DNA of 64,000 bases. It comes from Escherichia coli (GTDB taxonomy: Bacteria; Pseudomonadota; Gammaproteobacteria; Enterobacterales; Enterobacteriaceae). Both the position numbers and the translations under genes were made by a program. How positions within the stretch are numbered: the stretch's first letter is position 1; every line of letters starts with the position of its first letter. The stretch lies in assembly GCF_024223415.1 (NCBI RefSeq), contig NZ_CP100501.1. The stretch is one strand, 5' to 3'. The notes below the pieces were generated by a model. The model was not told the DNA's origin. It saw only the letters and a program-made list of their open reading frames with translations, and ran no database searches. This document shows, piece after piece, positions 13,610 through 24,981 of the stretch.

Positions 13610-14902
13610 TCAGGCCGGCACATACCTCAGCAGACTGATATCCCGCGCGTTTTTCTTCAGCCCTGATACATTCAGCCCCGCAAGGGCCCGGCGGTATACC
13701 ATCCGGCCGCCACACAGCACGCATTCGAACGGGTCACGACTCAGGAACTGTTTCACCATTTGTGCATAGCACACTTTCGCCACCGGTTCCGGTTTATCCA
13801 TCCCCAGAGCTCGGTACACCTGCGGCAGCTTCTCTCCACACCCCCGGTTGGCAAGGAACCCGAAGTACCTCACCATCTTAAAAAACTTCTCCGGGATGTG
13901 CTGTTTCATCCTCGCGACCAGCTCACGCTGCGTCAGCGTTTCCGTCGCTGTCTCTCCCGTTTTGTGGTCCAGGTAACGGAAGCTCAGGCTCGCCCCTCCG
14001 TTGTAATGTGCCAGCCGGGAAGCCGCTATTGGTGGCTTCTTCAGATAACGACCCAGGTAGCGTGCCGTATTCCGCCCGCCGGCCGTCTTCTTCGACATGT
14101 ACACATGCCAGTATTTTCCGCCGGCTTTCAGCACCAGGCTTCTCCACTGTGATTCCGTCGTGATATGTGACAACGACTCCGGCATCGCCATCCCCTCTGA
14201 CCACGCTTTCAGAAGCAACTGCCGTATATTCCACATCCACCGCGAACGCATTGCGTCTTTCAGGAAGCTCAGCTTTTTCCACTGACCGTGCTTATTCAGC
14301 CCCCCGCAGGTTACTGACACATGTACATGCGGATGCCAGTTGAGACGACGGCCATATGTGTGGATGGCGCAGAAGATACCGGGTTCCAGCCCCCGTTTTC
14401 GGGCGGCATACAGCAGCCAACGGTTGCTTTCGAACACCGGCCACAGCGTGTCCGGCAGGGTGAAGACCAGGTGTACCCAGTCGCAGTCAGGAAGACGATT
14501 CAGCTGTGTCGCTGTCCACAGGTCTGTGGCCTTTTTTCCGCAGGACGGGCAGGCACGGCTGCCACATGAGTTAGTGACGTATCTGACGTGGGGACAGTCA
14601 GGTTTATCGCAGTTGTATTCCTTCACGCCCAGTATCCGCGTGCCGCAGGCCAGCATTTTGGTGACAGCCTCAACCTCGATATCGCGCAGACCGCCCGCAT
14701 CCAGGAAGGACGTCCAGCACTGGTTGGCTGTGAACAGGCGTTTCAGCGGACGGGGCTGAAAATCACCACCACTTCGGGTCATCCATCCTGCACGCTCCAT
14801 CTGATAATGTTCTGACAGGTAAAAATAATATCCCGCATGATTTGTGTGCTCATGATTTCTGATAATATCAGATATGGTTTTATCATCAATGATGAAAATC
14901 AT
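13610..14902 (-). CDS. IS91-family (HUH rolling-circle) transposase
   Basis: Cys-rich zinc-binding N-terminus, HxH (HPHVHV) and paired-Tyr region; true start probably internal (MERAGWMTRSGG...). Confidence 0.85.
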   Translation of the reverse strand: MIFIIDDKTISDIIRNHEHTNHAGYYFYLSEHYQMERAGWMTRSGGDFQPRPLKRLFTANQCWTSFLDAGGLRDIEVEAVTKMLACGTRILGVKEYNCDKPDCPHVRYVTNSCGSRACPSCGKKATDLWTATQLNRLPDCDWVHLVFTLPDTLWPVFESNRWLLYAARKRGLEPGIFCAIHTYGRRLNWHPHVHVSVTCGGLNKHGQWKKLSFLKDAMRSRWMWNIRQLLLKAWSEGMAMPESLSHITTESQWRSLVLKAGGKYWHVYMSKKTAGGRNTARYLGRYLKKPPIAASRLAHYNGGASLSFRYLDHKTGETATETLTQRELVARMKQHIPEKFFKMVRYFGFLANRGCGEKLPQVYRALGMDKPEPVAKVCYAQMVKQFLSRDPFECVLCGGRMVYRRALAGLNVSGLKKNARDISLLRYVPA

Positions 14903-15139
14903 ATCTGATATGATTTTATGTGAATTGCTTAATTAGCATATCATTTGCCCGTTTCCCGCCGTGCAGATCCGGTTTCCGGCGAAGTCGGATCGACCTAATC
15001 TTTGTTTCTGATATGAACATCTCGGAGAGGTGTAAGCAATGGTATAAACGAAATGTATTATGTATCTGCATCACAGCATGCGGGCACATTTTGCGGCAGG
15101 ATATGAATCCCCCCGGAATAACTGGCAAAGGACAGATAA

Positions 15140-17234
15140 ATGGACATTGAAATACGCCACTGCAATAACATCGTACGAGCACATATCACCCTCACTGCCG
15201 ATAAACTGAACATTAAGTTTGCGCCAAATGGTACTGGAAAAAGTACGCTGTCACGGGCCATAAGCTGTGCGGCGCGGGACGACATTCAGGGACTACAGGC
15301 ACTGATGCCCTTCCGGCTGCGCGGAGAAAACCCCGATAGCACCGGGCCCATTGTCATCGGTGCTGACGGGATTGGGGACGTGATGTGCTTCAACGAGGAG
15401 TACGTCAGTCAGTTTACGTTCCAACCGGACGAGCTCATCAGTGACAGCTTTAATATTCTTATCCGCAATCAAGCCCATGCGGAAAGAGAGCGTGAAATAG
15501 AAGAAATGACGCAAAAGATCCGGGCTGTTTTCACGGATCACACTGAGCTGAACTCTCTGATAGACCATCTACAGGAACTCAGTAATGCTTTCAAATCAAC
15601 CAGTTCCGGGATTTCACGTTCTTCAACCGGCATGAGAGGTCTGTCAGGCGGAAATAAAATACACCACATTCCGGCTGGTCTTGAGAACTATCAACCCTAC
15701 ATCCGCAGTGAACGCCGCGTGGAATGGATTGACTGGCAGACAAAGGGACTCGAGTTTTCGCCCCTTTCGGATGGCTGCTGTCCGTTCTGTACCGGTGATA
15801 TCACGGGAAAGGAAGCACAAATTCGCCAAGTCAGAGAGGAATACGATAAATCCACCATTAAAAATGACGGAGAGCGCCAGAGAACGCCTTCTGGCCATTA
15901 CTATGCTTCAGAACGGTCCGGAAGCCGAACATATCGAGTACCTAGTGGCGTTGAAACGCCAGACCGATACGCTGACAGAGAAACTCACTGCGCTGAGAGG
16001 CCTGAATGTTTTCAGCCTGCAGGAACAGCAGAACGTTCGGGAGGTGCTCACTGCCAGGTTGATTGACCTGCAGTTCTTCCCTGATCTGCAATCCGAACTC
16101 ATGCAGGGGATCACCGACAGACTGAACGCGGCCCTTATGGACCTGATAAACCTTGCCGGACCGCTGCAGGGAAAAATTAACCGGCACCGGGACAGCATGA
16201 TCCGGCTGATCGCACAGCACAAAACAAACATCAATAATTTCCTCACTTATGCAGGCTATAAATACAGGGTGGATATAGCCGGCGAGGGAGAGCAGAGAAA
16301 ACTCAGGCTACGACACATAGATTTTGACGGGTACGTCAGCGGCGGTAGCCAGCATCTCAGCTATGGAGAACGGAACGCCTTTGCGATTGTGTTATTCATG
16401 TATGAATGCCTGTCAAAAAACCCGGGACTGATTATCCTTGATGATCCCATATCTTCTTTTGATAAAAACAAGAAGTTTGCCATTCTTGAAATGCTGTTCA
16501 GACGTGCAAGTGGTGAATGCCTGAAGAACCGGACTGTACTTATGCTGACGCATGACGTGGAGCCTGTGATTGACACGCTGAAGTCAGTCAGAAGGTTGTT
16601 CAGTAATCAGGTGACCGCCTCCTGCCTGCGCCTGTCTGCTGGAGTCATAGAAGAATTACCTGTTAACGACGGCGATATCATGACATTCATGCAGATCTGC
16701 AAATCCATCACCGCGTCAGCAGACTGTGAGGAGATCATTAAGCTCATCTATCTTCGTCGCTACTTTGAAATCGTTGACGAACGTGGTGATGCTTATCAGC
16801 TTCTATCCAATCTATTCCATCGACGCGTCGCCCCGCTGGATTATCGCGAGCCTGCCGCTGCGGGCTCGGGCTATCCCAAAATGGCTCCTGAGAAAATTCA
16901 GCAGGCCTTGCGGGATATCCGGGAGTATGTGGACAGTTTTGATTACCCGCGACTTCAGGCTCTCGTCAGCAGCCCAGATGAAATAAAAAACCTGTACCGT
17001 CGCTGTCGTAACGGCTATGAAAAACTGCAGGTATTCCGTTTACTGGAACTGGATCAGGACCATCCGGTAATACGAAAATTCGTTAACGAAACGTACCACA
17101 TTGAAAATGAGTTCATCTGTCAACTAGATCCGTCCAGATTCGATCTCATCCCGGAGTACGTGATTATGGAATGTGACAAGTTCATCGCCCTGCCACCGGC
17201 AGCAAACCAGAGCTCGGTTGCCCGTATCGCTTGA
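15140..17234 (+). pseudogene. Rad50/RloC-like ABC ATPase with CxxC hook-like motif and about 240-aa C-terminal domain of unknown function; split by a frameshift in an A5 run
   Basis: Walker A FAPNGTGKST (N-terminal ORF 15140..16066); CPFC motif mid-insert; ABC signature LSYGERNAF, Walker B LIILDD, H-loop LMLTHD (C-terminal ORF, other frame); frames rejoin if one A is removed at 15860..15864. Confidence 0.65.
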
Positions 17235-20039: not shown

Positions 20040-20400
20040 CCTGATTCTAATAATGATATTTCAGCATGATAGCAGCAATAAAATAGATTGCAGCTATCAT
20101 GCTGTACACATACGGCCTAGCGCTCTGCTTATGTTATGCTATCTGCAATCTTGCGGCAATCTTGCTTCATCTGTCGATGCGATTCTGAATGAGGTTTCTT
20201 TTATTGTTAACGTGACACAAGTATTCGGCTGTCAATTCCAGCACTCTGCTAAGTAGCAAGATTTAATCTTGCTACTAGATTTTTTATTGTTGCAATCTTG
20301 CTGCAAGCTGTTATCTTGTTCTGGAAGAGTTACTCTACCTAACCTCAATCTGGTTTATATTGATGTTTGCTGCAAGATAGCAGCAAGTAAAGGGGGCTAA
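20040..20400. repeat. Array of GCAATCTTGC/GCAAGATTGC-type repeats and palindromes upstream of parA (putative operator/centromere)
   Basis: Recurrent motif at about 20065, 20140, 20255, 20290 and 20365; repeated again at 21410..21500. Confidence 0.55.
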
Positions 20401-21033
20401 ATGGCCTGGATAGTTGGTTTTATTTCTCAGAAAGGTGGTGTGGGCAAAAGCACTAAAGCGAGAGCGTTAGCGCGTGAAGCATCCGCCTGTGGTATCAAAA
20501 CAAAATTAGCTGATCTCGACTTGGAACAGGCAACGAGTGCTGAGTGGCATCGTAGACGTCTGTCAGCTGGTTTGTCACCGGTTGCTTCAGTTGAAGTGTT
20601 TTCAACAGCAAAGCAGGCGATAGAATCTGCCGGCGATTTTGACCTTCTGATTCTTGATGGCCCTGCTCGTGCAAGTAAAGGTACTTCAGAAATTGCTAAG
20701 GTCGCCGACCTTATCGTCCAGCCAACGGGGGCCTCCCTTGACGATCTTGTCCCGGCAATTAAAGTTTTCAACGCGTTGGTAAAAGAAGGTATACCACGTT
20801 CAAAACTGGTCTTCGCTTTAAGCCGGGTAGGTACCGAAGCGGAAGAGCTGGATGCTCGTGCATATATCAGTGAAGCAGGTTATGAAACTTTATCTGGATG
20901 CCTTTTTGAGAAGCCAGCATACAGAAAAGCGATGAATTCAGGACTCGCTGTGACAGAAACACGTTATAAAGGTTTAAACGAGAGAGCTGATGAACTTATC
21001 CAGGCACTCATCGATAAGATTGGAGAAGAGTAA
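20401..21033 (+). CDS. parA: ParA-family partition ATPase (small type Ib)
   Basis: Deviant Walker A KGGVGKST at the N-terminus; 210 aa. Confidence 0.85.
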   Translation: MAWIVGFISQKGGVGKSTKARALAREASACGIKTKLADLDLEQATSAEWHRRRLSAGLSPVASVEVFSTAKQAIESAGDFDLLILDGPARASKGTSEIAKVADLIVQPTGASLDDLVPAIKVFNALVKEGIPRSKLVFALSRVGTEAEELDARAYISEAGYETLSGCLFEKPAYRKAMNSGLAVTETRYKGLNERADELIQALIDKIGEE

Positions 21034-21407
21034 TGGCTGATGCGTCAAAACTTAGAACTAAAAGAACCCGTAGTGGGTTGGGGGTACCCCCGGGCCCCGA
21101 CGAAGTGGCTACCAGCTTGAATGCGCCTGAGATAGCTCCGGCTGTCGCTGCCACTGATGTTCAGAGACAACAGGCAGACTCATCGCCAGTGCACCATGAG
21201 CCTGTGGTTACGCAAACTGTGACCGAGGTATATACCCGCCGCGATGGCCGTTCTGCCAGAAAAACAAACAGGACGCTGGCATTTGCAACACGTGTCACAC
21301 CTGCTTTCGACCAAGAGATCCGGGATATCGCAGAGCGTGAGGGGTTGAAACTGGTGGAAGTTCTGGAAAAAGCAGTTGAGGCATATAAGGAAAAACAGGG
21401 CTATTAA
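21033..21407 (+). CDS. Putative centromere-binding partner of ParA (ParG/ParB-like)
   Basis: 124-aa ORF directly after parA (ATGA overlap), followed by a second repeat block. Confidence 0.5.
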   Translation: MADASKLRTKRTRSGLGVPPGPDEVATSLNAPEIAPAVAATDVQRQQADSSPVHHEPVVTQTVTEVYTRRDGRSARKTNRTLAFATRVTPAFDQEIRDIAEREGLKLVEVLEKAVEAYKEKQGY

Positions 21408-21409
21408 TC

Positions 21410-21500
21410 CGGGATGCAGCAATCTTGCTGCATTCTTTTTTTGTGTGCAATCTTGCAGCAAGATTTATGCTAGATAAATGCTAGATTGCTGCAAGATAAA
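21410..21500. repeat. Second block of GCAATCTTGC-type repeats, upstream of stbA
   Basis: gcagcaatcttgctgcattc ... tgcaatcttgcagcaagattt ... ctagattgctgcaagataaa. Confidence 0.5.
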
Positions 21501-21645
21501 TGATATAATGCTCAAATTGAGTAGTTAACTGCCCCAGGTAAGTACGCAGCTTGAGTACTTACCTGTGGTTTATGAACGTATTTACTTAATGTGAGTAGTT
21601 ATTGGGTGAAGATTAATACTCAAATTGAGTATAAATGGAGATGGT

Positions 21646-22620
21646 ATGAGAATTTTTTGCGATGATGGTTCTACAAATGTGAAACTTGCCTGGTTTGAAG
21701 GCAAGACGCTGAAAAGTGCGGTATCAGTGAACTCTTTTCGCCATAACTGGAAAGTCGAGGGCTTAGGCAGCAGTCGTACCTATAACTATTTGCTTGATGG
21801 CCGTAAATATACCTACGACCCGGTCAGCGAAGATGCGATCAGCACGACTCATATTGAGTATCAGTACTCTGATACAAATGTGTTGGCAGTTCACCACGCA
21901 TTACTGAACAGTGGAATTGAACCCCAGGAGATCGATCTCACCGTTACGTTACCTATCAGCGAGTTTTACACGGCCGACTGCCAGAAAAATACGCTTAACA
22001 TTGAGAGAAAAATTCGCAACCTGATGCGGGAAGTCACCCTGAACAAAGGGGGAACTTTTACCATTAAAAGCGTTGAAGTGATGCCTGAATCACTCCCGGC
22101 TGTATTTACTCGCCTAGTTGCTGACAATGTTGGTCAGTACGAAAAATCATTGGTTATCGATCTCGGTGGTACAACTCTGGATGTCGGGGTTATTGTTGGC
22201 CAGTTTGAGGATGTTTCGGCTGTACATGGTAATCCTGATATTGGTGTATCAATGGTCACGAAAGCCACGCTCACTGCACTGAAAATGGCCAGCAGTGATA
22301 CCAGTCCAATGATTGCTGACGAGTTGATCAAAAACAGGAAGAACCTGGATTTTGTGGGGCAGGTTGTAAATGAGGTTTCTAAACTAAATCTGGTGCTGGA
22401 TACCATTGATACAGCGATAAATAAACTGGGCGAGCTAGTTGTTGATGATTTGCTGCAGTATCGAAACGTAAACCGCGTATATATTGTCGGAGGCGGGGCT
22501 GCACTCATTGCTGATGCTGTTCGTAAGGCATGGAACCACCTTGGCGAAAAGGTGGTTCTTATGGATGAACCTCAGACAGCGCTGGTCCAGGCTATTGCAC
22601 GCTTCAAAGCGGAGGAGTAA
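21646..22620 (+). CDS. stbA: Actin-like segregation ATPase StbA/ParM
   Basis: MRIFCDDGSTNVKLAW N-terminus (actin-fold phosphate-1 motif); start at ATG 21646 with GGAG RBS. Confidence 0.85.
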   Translation: MRIFCDDGSTNVKLAWFEGKTLKSAVSVNSFRHNWKVEGLGSSRTYNYLLDGRKYTYDPVSEDAISTTHIEYQYSDTNVLAVHHALLNSGIEPQEIDLTVTLPISEFYTADCQKNTLNIERKIRNLMREVTLNKGGTFTIKSVEVMPESLPAVFTRLVADNVGQYEKSLVIDLGGTTLDVGVIVGQFEDVSAVHGNPDIGVSMVTKATLTALKMASSDTSPMIADELIKNRKNLDFVGQVVNEVSKLNLVLDTIDTAINKLGELVVDDLLQYRNVNRVYIVGGGAALIADAVRKAWNHLGEKVVLMDEPQTALVQAIARFKAEE

Positions 22621-22623
22621 TCG

Positions 22624-23016
22624 ATGTACGACGGCGAAGAAAGGAAAAAACTTTCACTCTACCTTCACCCGGAGGACTCTGCCGATTGTCTTGCACTGGC
22701 TGAAATCGAAACTGTTCCCCGGAAAAAACGGGGGGAGTTATATCGGCAGGCTTTGATAACCGGCCTGATAATGCATCAGCTTGATGAGAGAATTCCCGCC
22801 GTGTTAACCGCGCTATTCACCAGAGAACTGAATGCGGATGAGGTCATTAGTCAGATTGCCAGGATAACAGGCTGGAAACCCTCCTCCGGTGATTTAAAAG
22901 AGGTACTGAAGGCGTTGGGAGGGCTTCAGAGTACAGTTTCACCAGAACTCTCTCAGGATGACGGTGAACAGGCCCGTCTGAAAGCGGCTAGGGTGAAGAT
23001 GCAAAAGCTAATCTAA
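22624..23016 (+). CDS. stbB: StbB/ParR-like partition adaptor
   Basis: 130-aa ORF immediately downstream of stbA. Confidence 0.6.
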   Translation: MYDGEERKKLSLYLHPEDSADCLALAEIETVPRKKRGELYRQALITGLIMHQLDERIPAVLTALFTRELNADEVISQIARITGWKPSSGDLKEVLKALGGLQSTVSPELSQDDGEQARLKAARVKMQKLI

Positions 23017-23171
23017 AAAAGTCTCGCTCCGTGAAACCTGCAAAATTTCTCGGGGTGTGCGGCTTAATTTTTAGATTTCCGCGTTTCCCGTCATTTGAGT
23101 CAATGGAGTGCTGGTTGACAGCTCCCTGCTCTGAAGGACGGGGATTCCCACATATGCAGCCAGATTTCCGG

Positions 23172-23279
23172 CTAGTGTGGTTTCAGACGTTGTTCGATTT
23201 CATTCTGTAGCGCCTGAAGTGTGCCTGATTTGAGGTTTTTTGTGCTCTGGCGGTCGAAAAGAATTTCAATGCGGATCAT
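23172..23279 (-). CDS. DinI/ImpC-like small ORF, apparently truncated (35 codons)
   Basis: MIRIEILFDRQSTKNLKSGTLQALQNEIEQRLKPH resembles the DinI N-terminus; GGGAGA RBS; LexA box just upstream. Confidence 0.35.
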   Translation of the reverse strand: MIRIEILFDRQSTKNLKSGTLQALQNEIEQRLKPH

Positions 23280-23300
23280 GTTCTCATCTCCCTTTTATTT

Positions 23301-23320
23301 TACTGTGTATATATACAGTA
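23301..23320. promoter_or_regulatory. LexA (SOS) box
   Basis: TACTGTGTATATATACAGTA, one mismatch from the CTGT-N8-ACAG consensus palindrome. Confidence 0.65.
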
Positions 23321-23672
23321 TTCTAATAACTGAATCCACACACAGTCAAATGTCATTGTTGTGACTAAAAAACGCTCAATTCTCTGAGAGTGTGGCTGTA
23401 TGCCTGCTGTGGACTGCTGTGTCCAGCTTATCCACAGCATTTTGTGCACGGTTCTGTGGACAAAATACCTGGTTACCCAGGCCGTGCCGGCACGTTAACC
23501 GGGCTGCATCCGATGCAAGTGTGTCGCTGTCGCCGGCCTTCTCACCCGGTCACGTTTCGTCGTTCCTCCTCCACGAGCTGCGGCTTCGGGGCCGCACCTG
23601 CATTCGTATGCGGTCGCCCGGTTACAGGTGCGGCACGGCCTGATGGAGGCCGCATGTGAGAGGAGAATTCCC

Positions 23673-24599
23673 ATGCCAAACTGGTGCTCAAATCGTATGT
23701 ATTTTTCTGGTGAACCGGCACAGATTGCTGAGATTAAACGACTGGCCAGCGGTGCAGTCACACCGTTTTATCGCCGCGCCACAAATGAAGGTATTCAGCT
23801 GTTTCTGGCCGGAAGTGCCGGACTTCTGCAGACCACTGAAGATGTGCGGTTTGAACCATGTCCCGGACTGACGGCTGCCGGACGTGGCGTTGTATCGCCG
23901 GAGAATATCGCGTTCACCCGCTGGCTGACATACCTGCAGGACGGTGTACTGCTGGATGAGCAAAACTGCCTGATGCTGCATGAACTCTGGCTGCAGAGCG
24001 GTACTGGACAGCGTCGCTGGGAAGGATTACCGGACGATGTCAGGGATACCATCACCGCACTTTTCACCGCAAAAAGAGGTGACTGGTGTGGCTTCTGGAG
24101 TAACGAAGATGTATCGGTGTGGTGGAACCGTCTGTGTGACAACGTACTGCCGGAAAAAACCATGCCGTTTGACCTGCTGACGGTTCTGCCCACCCGCCTG
24201 GATGTTGAAGTGAATGGCTTTAACGGTGGTGTTCTGAACGGTGTTCCTTCTGCATATCACTGGTATACGGAACGGTATGGCGTGAAGTGGCCTGTGGGGT
24301 ATGAGGTGAATATCAGTAATCAGGGAGACAACTTCATTAAGGTGGATTTCGACACGCCGTGGTGTCAGCCGGAAAGCGACGTTATTGCAGAATTAAGCCG
24401 CCGTTTCAGCTGCACGCTGGAGCACTGGTATGCCGAACAGGGCTGTGATTTCTGTGGCTGGCAGTTGTATGAGCGCGGAGAGCTCGTTGATGTGCTGTGG
24501 GGGGAACTGGAATGGTCTTCCCCGACAGATGACGATGAGCTGCCGGAAGTCACCGGACCTGCGTGGATAGTCGACAATGTGGCGCATTATGGCGGATGA
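23673..24599 (+). CDS. Hypothetical leading-region protein
   Basis: Start MPNWCSNRMYF at ATG 23673 with GAGAGGAG RBS; conserved-looking, function unknown. Confidence 0.6.
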   Translation: MPNWCSNRMYFSGEPAQIAEIKRLASGAVTPFYRRATNEGIQLFLAGSAGLLQTTEDVRFEPCPGLTAAGRGVVSPENIAFTRWLTYLQDGVLLDEQNCLMLHELWLQSGTGQRRWEGLPDDVRDTITALFTAKRGDWCGFWSNEDVSVWWNRLCDNVLPEKTMPFDLLTVLPTRLDVEVNGFNGGVLNGVPSAYHWYTERYGVKWPVGYEVNISNQGDNFIKVDFDTPWCQPESDVIAELSRRFSCTLEHWYAEQGCDFCGWQLYERGELVDVLWGELEWSSPTDDDELPEVTGPAWIVDNVAHYGG

Positions 24600-24981
24600 A
24601 GTATGACGGAGACGGGCGGGCAACTGCCCGTTTCTTTTCCGGTAAAGGATGTCGCCATGCTCCTCTTTTTACTGCGCCGGCTGACGCGGCGCGGCATAAA
24701 CGCTGCCTGTGGTCAGTGTCCCGCGTCCGGTGGGCACGGGACGGGCGCTTTTACCGCTCCCGGCTGGCGTCGGTGACAGTGTACGCCAGCCTGTCGCCCT
24801 TTTCTGATGAACGCCCTTCAAGCCGCTTTCGCGGCATAACCTTGCCGTCAAACAGACGACGGCTGCGGTATTCCACGGTCGGCCTGACCCGTTACCGGAC
24901 GCGGTGAACAGCCCACAGGCAGCGGGGAACGGGCACCACAGGGGTGCCCTCCCGGTGCCCCCTGTAAGAGAAGGAGCTGTT

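Follow-up and report, generated by a model that had tools for sequence, protein, structure and literature searches.

A 64,000-nucleotide stretch of Escherichia coli DNA (the window) harbors a tandem of two distinct partition systems: a type Ib system with ParA and a small partner comes first, and a type II system with ParM and ParR follows. It is probable that the two form a double partition module of self-contained cassettes that have separate centromeres and are likely linked by one-way cross-talk. The module would reside on an IncI-gamma/K-type conjugative plasmid. The first cassette would produce, from one operon, the ParA ATPase and a 124-aa dimeric ribbon-helix-helix (RHH)-type centromere-binding protein (CBP), while the second is a ParMRC system with its own set of palindromic boxes.

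At least 301 sequenced plasmids from E. coli, Klebsiella, and Salmonella carry the four-gene block in nearly intact form, and diverged forms are found in Hafnia, Pectobacterium, Morganella, and Enterobacter. Its second gene is annotated as "hypothetical protein" everywhere. A literature search by Inc group, gene names, and RefSeq protein accessions returned no paper on the locus, only annotation-level mentions.

Gene identities and layout

The genes parA, partner, parM, and stbB/parR lie head to tail on the plus strand (Table 1), and the start codon of the partner overlaps the parA stop codon (TAATG). ParA carries KGGVGKST from residue 11 and, at 210 aa without an N-terminal DNA-binding domain, has the build of type Ib ParAs (~200-300 aa, no such domain). 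Its Pfam matches are CbiA and MipZ, and its score against the NCBIfam model ParA_partition is 93.6 bits, under the cutoff of 180. In the PDB, it matches ParF (4DZZ) and ParA (5U1G) with E ~5e-7, with residues 4-188 aligned.

ParM is actin-like and harbors both ParM domains (StbA_N PF06406, 2e-68; ParM C-terminal domain PF21523, 3.5e-43), and it is 67% identical to the pB171-type ParM. The pB171-type sequences compared here come from the locus L007 rather than from AB024946 itself; the ParR of this locus is ~97% identical to 2JD3. ParR of the window is homologous to its pB171-type counterpart (~48% identity), matches Plasmid_stab_B (PF10784, 3e-28), and aligns with the PDB entry 2JD3, "StbB protein", over residues 2-129 (E 1.3e-34). 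Full-length pB171 ParR has been crystallised (review PMC5016525), and 2JD3 appears to be that structure. The ParMR pair belongs to the type II ParMRC systems, in the lineage of pB171 par1. The profile and PDB matches thereby bear out the initial annotation, which had described a small ParA with its partner followed by a StbA/ParM-StbB pair.

Table 1. Coordinates of the genes, repeats, and putative regulatory elements of the locus in the window.
Feature	Position	Strand	Description or basis
Upstream repeat array, type Ib (parC1-like: putative operator and centromere)	20062..20387	.	Tetramer density; 11-bp phasing over 9 loci
18-bp inverted repeat, 7-bp spacer	20062-20104		Upstream-array sub-site
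Two direct 11-bp units	20145-20166		Upstream-array sub-site
Perfect palindrome AGTAGCAAGATT-T-AATCTTGCTACT, then T run	20252..20276	+	Motif site and terminator-like hairpin
11-bp units	20292-20313		Upstream-array sub-site
Inferred parA -10 element TATATT	20356..20361	+	AT-rich hexamer kept in relatives
parA-proximal putative operator GCTGCAAGATAGCAGC	20369..20384	+	Between inferred promoter and parA ribosome-binding site
parA	20401-21033	+	210-aa Walker-type partition ATPase
CBP (partner) gene	21033-21407	+	124-aa putative centromere-binding partner of ParA
Intrinsic terminator of parA operon	21411..21443	+	Stem is motif palindrome GCAGCAATCTTGCTGC, then T7
Downstream array (parC2-like), five consecutive 11-bp units	21447..21501	+	Sequence, phasing
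TGATATAAT, inferred extended -10 of parM promoter	21501..21509	+	Conservation
parC of ParMR (putative centromere)	21510..21631	.	Four 14-bp palindromic ParR boxes, consensus ACTCAAATTGAGTA
parM (stbA)	21646-22620	+	Actin-like segregation ATPase, 324 aa
parR (stbB)	22624-23016	+	130-aa putative centromere-binding adaptor of ParM

The ParA partner and its repeat arrays

An alignment of the 124-aa partner (A1), together with structural models, reveals a conserved basic peptide at the N-terminus and a conserved beta-alpha-alpha (RHH-like) domain at the C-terminus, joined by a variable linker. Pfam, NCBIfam, and PDB searches (the latter by phmmer and profiles) yield no sequence match. Comparisons by hhalign with Arc, CopG, omega, ParG, and Mnt and with pB171-type ParB give probabilities of <20%, with weak in-register matches at most. 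Against the 91-aa pB171-type ParB of L007 in particular, BLASTP returns no alignment at E <=100, and the hhalign probability is 0.2%.

The AF2 monomer has helices at residues 90-103 and 107-122 with a pLDDT of ~90, and the AF2 linked dimer (pTM 0.59) forms beta-alpha-alpha twice, gaining beta residues over the monomer. The Foldseek list for the monomer consists mostly of CopG (TM 0.74, rmsd 1.0 A), Arc, MatP-RHH, and ParG, while the best match of the linked dimer is single-chain Arc (1U9P; E 0.04, probability 0.99). The Foldseek E-values, from 0.04 to 2, are weak because the domain is tiny. The C-terminus is predicted to adopt an RHH fold, and on this predicted structure, the partner has the form expected of type Ib systems, i.e., a small CBP encoded directly downstream of parA with a C-terminal RHH domain. 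We infer that the partner is the CBP of the type Ib system.

Homologues of the partner in Pseudomonas/Xanthomonas plasmids share 45-50% identity with it, and those in the diverged tandem loci share 57-67%. The core of the DNA motif described below goes along with a conserved strand of the partner, FATRVT, and this core changes in a 37%-identical Rickettsia homologue, which was left out of the motif work because its repeat differs.

The motif GCAATCTTGC occurs in five exact copies in the 64 kb (20145, 20156, 20292, 21419, and 21447), all of which fall within 20145-20301 or 21419-21456, and the only further copies at <=1 mismatch are at 20372 and 21480. Motif enumeration thus confirms its presence both upstream of parA and between the two loci. 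Of the 14 window copies of the 7-bp core ATCTTGC/GCAAGAT, 10 fall inside the two clusters (binomial P about 3e-19, with the clusters taking up 452 of 64,000 bp), and so do 8 of the 9 copies of AATCTTGC. GCAA/TTGC tetramers reach 4.4 and 7.7 per 100 bp in the clusters vs 0.8 window-wide, and the three densest 91-bp windows of such tetramers in the whole sequence correspond to these two clusters. Whole-window shuffle counts for the motif are not significant by themselves; the signal lies in positional clustering, hence the binomial test.

GCAATCTTGC is one unit within an 11-bp-phased array of inverted GCAA/TTGC tetramers. Pooled over nine loci, tetramers of the same orientation are spaced by 11 bp (45 pairs), 22 bp (13), or 33 bp (12), with almost nothing between. 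Each repeat is an 11-bp element of the form GCAA-NN-TTGC-N with the core GCAAGAT. CBP would bind such phased arrays on either side of its operon.

The upstream array includes a hairpin (20252-20276; -14.7 kcal/mol, z -4.7) located 3' of a recombinase gene, as well as the putative parA operator. A two-hexamer consensus scan reported neither par promoter, and both were placed by conservation. The predicted transcription starts would be near 20368 for parA and near 21516 for parM. For parA, no convincing -35 was found; a -10-like AT-rich hexamer lies 5-8 bp upstream of the operator in most of 10 aligned loci. The GCWGC-N6-GCWGC of the operator is invariant (alignment A5), and in 9 of 10 diverged loci, a near-constant ~5-12 nt separates the operator from the parA Shine-Dalgarno sequence downstream of it; Morganella (L014) has a ~22-nt insert. 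Situated between promoter and ribosome-binding site, it would afford autorepression of the parA operon.

The downstream array would open with the terminator hairpin of the operon itself, after which come five phased units. The terminator (-16.2 kcal/mol, z -4.5) is kept in alignment A2, and L010 and L013 have equivalent hairpins with different stem sequences. The units are, in order, GCAATCTTGCA, GCAAGATTTAT, GCTAGATAAAT, GCTAGATTGCT, and GCAAGATAAAT. Across loci, the repeat arrays track the CBP gene; the motif is found on both flanks of parA-partner operons without parM in E. ludwigii (L002), Yersinia (L004), Erwinia (L012), and Pseudomonas/Xanthomonas (L005/L006). The second motif cluster is probably the ParA system's own downstream site, a parC1/parC2-like arrangement as in pB171 par2. 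In the manner of other type Ib systems, ParA-ATP would place the arrays, once coated by CBP, over the nucleoid, and the conserved basic N-terminal peptide of CBP would stimulate the ParA ATPase.

The repeats could in principle have nothing to do with partition, being chance terminator stems, targets of the adjacent tyrosine recombinase, or replication iterons. Two of the palindromes do fold as terminator-like hairpins, the recombinase gene ends 260 bp upstream, and the outermost sub-site is a spaced 18-bp inverted repeat. However, most units lie outside the hairpins, the motif is kept beside a divergent serine resolvase or another upstream gene (L003, L011, L012, and L014), and its core tracks the FATRVT strand and changes in Rickettsia. 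The recurrence of the 11-bp phasing across nine loci and the lack of an adjoining rep gene in the window led to rejection of the recombinase-site and iteron identities, and the non-partition reading as a whole has a negligible probability.

ParR boxes and the parM promoter

The ParMR system has a repeat set of its own. ParR boxes start at 21510, 21544, 21584, and 21618, and all window matches to ACTCAAATTGAGTA with <=3 mismatches fall within 21509-21860, a count reached in 0 of 100 shuffles. The boxes are situated between the inferred -10 and the Shine-Dalgarno sequence of parM, i.e., upstream of parM and overlapping its inferred promoter as is typical of type II parC repeats; the same box occupies the same place in L007 and L009. 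ParR bound to these four palindromes would act as a repressor of its own promoter and would also capture ParM filaments.

The motif GCAATCTTGC had been proposed to mark a centromere or operator common to both systems, whether StbB and the ParA partner both bind it or both motors make use of it. The position of the second cluster directly upstream of parM is compatible with this idea, as is the arrangement in pB171, where the cis region parC1 is said to serve two par loci. However, the two repeat sets are disjoint: there are no GCAA/TTGC tetramers in 21500-21645 and no ParR boxes in the region upstream of parA. Moreover, each set stays with its own protein in loci devoid of the other system, such that the motif flanks parA-partner operons without parM, while ParR's own boxes are common to pB171-type and ParM-only loci. 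Even in pB171, the two proteins reportedly bind unrelated repeat sets. The motif belongs to the ParA system alone, an outcome that had been named in advance as speaking against the initial proposal, and a shared centromere is very improbable.

The downstream array runs in unbroken 11-bp register up to the parM -10 element, and its fourth unit sits on the -35 position of the inferred parM promoter, which was missed by the two-hexamer scan because its -35 is weak. In the window, L003, L010, L011, L007, and L009, ParR box 1 is preceded at a distance of a few bp by a TATAAT-like hexamer, which is less clear in L013 and L014. The order of terminator, ATCTTGCNGCAA, GCTAGATTGC, -10, and ParR boxes recurs in six diverged tandem loci; ATCTTGCNGCAA is invariant across the six, and the position of GCTAGATTGC is kept in 3-4 of them. 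The array runs into the parM promoter in the Salmonella and Hafnia tandem loci and, less clearly, in that of E. cloacae. The presence of downstream units over the parM -35 region makes it plausible, from the sequence layout, that CBP damps parM-parR transcription in a one-way cross-talk. The type Ib ParB of pB171 is reported to repress the non-cognate parM promoter.

Alternatively, the two systems may be fully independent, with the downstream array serving the ParA system only and its overlap with the parM promoter reflecting tight packing without a regulatory effect. In line with this, the array is kept in relatives lacking parM, ParMR loci work alone elsewhere (L009), the ParR boxes are already available for autoregulation of the parM promoter, and the site at the -35 position is less clear in Pectobacterium (L013) and Morganella (L014). 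Tight packing does not readily account for the unbroken register up to the -10, nor for the spacing of GCTAGATTGC to the -10, which is kept in the window, L010, L011, and L017 and roughly in L003. In addition, the ParM-only locus L009 has a better -35 (TTGATG) and no such motif sites, and the array of L002 likewise runs into the TATAAT of the next downstream gene. Full independence is accordingly regarded as unlikely, although it retains some weight, and two cassettes with probable one-way cross-talk are the preferred reading.

Two extensions of the preferred reading are put forward tentatively. The locus may be a conserved, hierarchically wired double-par module in which CBP acts on the parM -35, or a composite centromere of ~220 bp (21415-21631) with two motors. 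If the former were true, the actin-type system would be expressed only when the protein of the ParA system is scarce. If the latter were true, two nucleoprotein complexes would lie side by side and engage two different motors.

Relation to known partition systems

Plasmid pB171 reportedly carries parMR as par1 and parAB with parC1 and parC2 as par2. The locus resembles it in having type II ParM/ParR as the immediate neighbor of a type Ib ParA/small-CBP locus, in the identity of the ParR box ACTCAAATTGAGTA (in L007), in the arrays that flank the type Ib operon, and in the putative CBP sites adjoining the parM promoter. The two systems are divergent in pB171 but tandem here; therefore, the parM-adjacent cis region is the downstream, parC2-like array and not the promoter-proximal parC1. 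Furthermore, ParA is only 29% identical to the pB171-type ParA (L007), the two operons are set apart by an intrinsic terminator, the repeats have another motif, and the CBP has 124 aa vs 91 aa with no detectable sequence similarity. With a non-homologous CBP, the locus is not assigned to the pB171 par2 (ParA/ParB) family, and only the flanking-array layout is common to both.

TP228 ParF/ParG/parH, pSM19035 delta/omega, and pCXC100 ParA/ParB share with the locus a small ParA, which is ParF-related here, and a CBP with a flexible basic N-terminus and a (here predicted) C-terminal beta-alpha-alpha domain. In such type Ib systems with small RHH CBPs, short direct and inverted repeat arrays also cover the operon promoter (PMC5016525). 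The differences lie in the CBP, which lacks a sequence match to ParG or omega, and in the 11-bp GCAA-NN-TTGC-N unit. Arrays on both sides of the type Ib operon are known from pESBL, pB171, and pSM19035 (PMC7602700).

The type Ib par of pESBL (IncI, E. coli O104:H4) consists of a small ParA and a ~100-aa ParB without recognisable homology and employs the octamer GATAACAA (PMC7602700). The plasmid backbone is related, and the pairing of a small ParA with a partner of no recognisable homology is similar, whereas the protein family and motif are different and no adjacent ParMR is described for pESBL. The octamer GATAACAA is clustered nowhere in the window, indicating that a pESBL-type system is absent there.

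True homologues of the partner, with the same C-terminal domain, are encoded in the parA-parB-parC loci of Pseudomonas/Xanthomonas (pMATVIM-7 and others), where a motif of the GCTAGAT type lies upstream and the stop codon is closely followed by a palindrome. This gene order is known from pRA2 (Kwong et al. 2001, via PMC3235114), with which the comparison is by gene order only. These loci differ in having a third gene that matches NCBIfam ParC and in lacking ParMR. The ParC model (NF041544) matches only the Pseudomonas homologue L005, and in the window, parM follows the partner gene; with no third parC gene downstream of the partner, assignment to the pRA2-type parABC group was rejected.

Both gene pairs are of known kinds, and the locus leaves the understanding of partition mechanisms unchanged. 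Naming the second gene as a type Ib CBP, with its motif and both arrays, corrects the "hypothetical protein" annotation. The defined motif and arrays also predict incompatibility determinants of these resistance and virulence plasmids. Finally, the module provides a second natural case, wired unlike pB171, for examining the coexistence of ParA-type and actin-type partition and any control of one by the other.

Gene content and plasmid setting

The block at 20040-23016 contains four genes, all on the plus strand and arranged head to tail. Their identities bear out the initial annotation of two partition systems in tandem: a type Ib cassette of parA and a 124-aa partner gene, and a type II cassette of parM/stbA and parR/stbB. 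The parA product matches NCBIfam ParA_partition under the cutoff, and its PDB match is ParF of TP228. According to a review, pB171 ParR has been crystallized at full length (PMC5016525).

Genes and repeat elements of the tandem partition block
Feature	Coordinates	Strand	Description
18-bp inverted repeat	20062-20104		CAGCATGATAGCAGCAAT / ATTGCAGCTATCATGCTG, 7-bp spacer
Two direct units	20145-20166		upstream region
Perfect palindrome	20252-20276		upstream region
Two units	20292-20313		upstream region
parA-proximal element	20369-20384		GCTGCAAGATAGCAGC, upstream region
parA	20401-21033	+	210 aa; deviant Walker A KGGVGKST; Pfam CbiA and MipZ
124-aa partner gene	21033-21407	+	ATG overlaps parA stop
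Downstream array	21447-21501		five consecutive 11-bp units: GCAATCTTGCA, GCAAGATTTAT, GCTAGATAAAT, GCTAGATTGCT, GCAAGATAAAT
Inferred parM -10 element	21501-21509		TGATATAAT, conserved hexamer upstream of ParR box 1
Four ParR boxes	21510, 21544, 21584, 21618		14-bp palindromes ACTCAAATTGAGTA, in 21500-21645
parM/stbA	21646-22620	+	both ParM domains, E 2e-68 and 3.5e-43
stbB/parR	22624-23016	+	PF10784, 3e-28; PDB 2JD3 'StbB protein', 1.3e-34

At the DNA level, the block is 99.7-99.8% identical to numerous IncI-gamma/K1-typed E. coli plasmids, including pBCE049-2, the E24377A plasmid NC_009788, and NC_007635. It is flanked on one side by a tyrosine recombinase gene and on the other by the leading region, which carries DUF1281, methylase, and antirestriction genes, ssb, and psiB. 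Colicin Ia-like and immunity genes are found upstream (about 14400-16700). A group II intron (ltrA) lies between parR and the DUF1281 gene in pBCE049-2 and is absent from the window (compared at 23300-24600).

Downstream of parR, homology stops near 23150, and umuDC, which follows parR in the pB171-type locus and in loci of E. cloacae, Salmonella, Hafnia, and Pectobacterium, is missing. A 35-aa minus-strand ORF (23172-23279) is identical to residues 1-35 of the DinI-like protein that adjoins umuDC in the pB171-type locus, and a LexA-box-like palindrome, TACTGTGTATATATACAGTA (23301-23320), is directly upstream of it. The segment 23150-23320 appears to be what a deletion has left of an SOS-mutagenesis module.

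No fewer than 301 plasmid records contain at least 80% of the 3.3-kb block. The order parA-partner-parM-parR also occurs in Salmonella, Hafnia, Pectobacterium, Morganella, and E. cloacae, with partners only 57-67% identical to that of the window. The closest outgroup of ParM and ParR is the pB171-type locus, in which they stand in divergent orientation to an unrelated type Ib pair, whereas the cassettes of the window are in tandem; judged by sequence, the ParM/ParR part is a ParMRC system of the pB171 lineage. A 2026 survey counted the combination of type I ribbon-helix-helix (RHH) ParB and type II systems in 971 PLSDB accessions (PMC13245405), and their co-occurrence is thus already known.

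The partner protein

Searches of Pfam, NCBIfam, and the PDB sequence set gave no match for the 124-aa partner, nor is it detectably similar to the pB171-type ParB. Aligning 32 homologues reveals three parts: a conserved basic N-terminal peptide (MADxSKLK...LGxPPGPDEVATSLNAPEIAP), a linker of variable length, and a strongly conserved C-terminal stretch of 55 residues (RRDGRSARKTNRTLAFATRVTPxFDxEIRDIAEREGLKLVEVLExAxxAYK). In the AlphaFold model, an extended segment leads into two confident C-terminal helices; in a model of two C-domains connected through a Gly-Ser linker, beta residues are gained in each half. Nearly all Foldseek matches of the monomer model are RHH proteins, namely CopG (TM 0.74, rmsd 1.0 A), Arc, the MatP RHH domain, NikA, CdbA, AmrZ, and ParG. 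The linked dimer best matches permuted single-chain Arc 1U9P (E 0.04, probability 0.99), and its next matches are F-plasmid relaxosome chains and AvtR. Because Foldseek E-values are weak for this very small domain and sequence-profile comparisons are marginal, the RHH fold is a well-supported prediction rather than a demonstration. The partner is a predicted centromere-binding protein (CBP) of type Ib, from a family so far unannotated.

Repeat architecture and assignment

A common motif had been noted upstream of parA and between the two loci, and enumeration agrees: exactly five copies of GCAATCTTGC occur in the 64 kb, three upstream of parA and two between the loci, and the only two one-mismatch copies fall within the same clusters. 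Ten of the 14 window copies of the core ATCTTGC/GCAAGAT lie inside 452 bp (binomial P 3e-19). GCAA/TTGC tetramers are 5-10 times denser in the clusters than in the whole window, and every other 91-bp stretch falls well short of this density.

The 10-mer is itself a single unit within a longer pattern. In nine related loci, the inverted tetramers of the arrays alternate between TTGC-N-GCAA and GCAA-NN-TTGC, and those of the same orientation are spaced by 11, 22, 33, 44, and 55 bp with almost none between, corresponding to one unit per helical turn. The downstream array has five such units, whereas the region upstream of parA harbors several shorter groups. Across ten diverged loci, GCWGC-N6-GCWGC is invariant in the parA-proximal element, and in most an AT-rich -10-like hexamer is directly 5′ of it. 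The element lies about 5-12 nt upstream of the parA Shine-Dalgarno in nine of the ten, Morganella having an insert of ~22 nt between them; this position would be that expected of an autoregulatory operator. The 18-bp inverted repeat, located 260 bp past the end of the tyrosine recombinase gene, shares 80% similarity with the parA-proximal operator and is therefore probably another CBP site; its geometry is also compatible with a recombinase core site.

Partner homologues occur in 459 plasmid records and in 243 protein clusters, and fifteen loci were examined. Loci with parA and partner and no parM, from E. ludwigii, Yersinia (pYV), Erwinia, Pseudomonas (pMATVIM-7), and Xanthomonas, carry the same motif family upstream and directly after the partner stop codon. 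Ahead of parM, no GCAA/TTGC tetramer occurs within 21500-21645. All window matches to the ParR box at up to three mismatches fall in 21509-21860, a count reached by 0 of 100 shuffles, and none is upstream of parA. The box also lies 5′ of parM in the pB171-type locus, whose ParR shares about 97% identity with 2JD3 (which we take to be the crystallized full-length pB171 ParR), and in a Serratia locus that has no neighboring ParA system. The repeat sets are thus disjoint, each accompanying its own DNA-binding protein, and the shared centromere initially proposed is not upheld. On these comparisons, the cluster at 21410-21500 is assigned to the ParA system as its own downstream site, with the repeats belonging to one system, and the four ParR boxes form the putative centromere of the ParM system. 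The ParA system thus has two arrays, a layout for which pB171 par2 (parC1, parC2), pSM19035, and pESBL are known precedents (PMC7602700).

A fifth box-like palindrome with one mismatch, ACTCATATTGAGTA (21847-21860), lies within the parM coding sequence and may be a by-product of T-H-I-E-Y codons or a further site for ParR. In plasmids of Escherichia sp. (L015, 2537-3202) and Klebsiella quasipneumoniae (L017, 1018-1207), the locus is interrupted by IS3-family insertions, either inside the ParR boxes or immediately past them; parM-parR is lost, and parA, partner, and downstream array are left. In the parM-less E. ludwigii locus (NZ_CP099326, 3364-4827), the downstream array meets TTATAAT and GGAG of a 452-aa ORF, which takes the place held by parM in other loci and matches nothing in Pfam, NCBIfam, or the PDB sequences.

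The predicted parM promoter and possible regulatory cross-talk

Directly 3′ of the partner stop codon, the palindrome GCAGCAATCTTGCTGC and T7 constitute an intrinsic terminator (-16.2 kcal/mol, z -4.5), with equivalent hairpins of different stem sequence in related loci; thus, parM requires a separate promoter. A TATAAT-like hexamer is located a few bp 5′ of ParR box 1 in the window, the pB171-type and ParM-only loci, and three of the five other tandem loci (E. cloacae, Salmonella, and Hafnia), being less clear in Pectobacterium and Morganella. With this -10 element, the parM start site would fall inside ParR box 1, the location that ParR autoregulation would predict. A consensus scan also returned a minus-strand promoter-like site (21500-21528; TTAACT, 17 nt, TATCAT), directed back into the partner gene and overlapping the inferred -10 element and ParR box 1, which probably arose by chance in AT-rich DNA.

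The first cassette's phased array reaches the parM -10 element in unbroken register, and a unit, GCTAGATTGC, occupies the -35 position. This position is kept in the window, Salmonella, Hafnia, and Klebsiella, and roughly in E. cloacae; the ParM-only Serratia locus lacks such units, and its -35 (TTGATG) is better. On the basis of the register and the -35 unit, the type Ib protein probably represses parM too. ParB of pB171 par2 reportedly represses the non-cognate par1 promoter (work of Ringgaard et al. in 2007). Possible one-way regulatory cross-talk of this kind is the sole non-routine element here.
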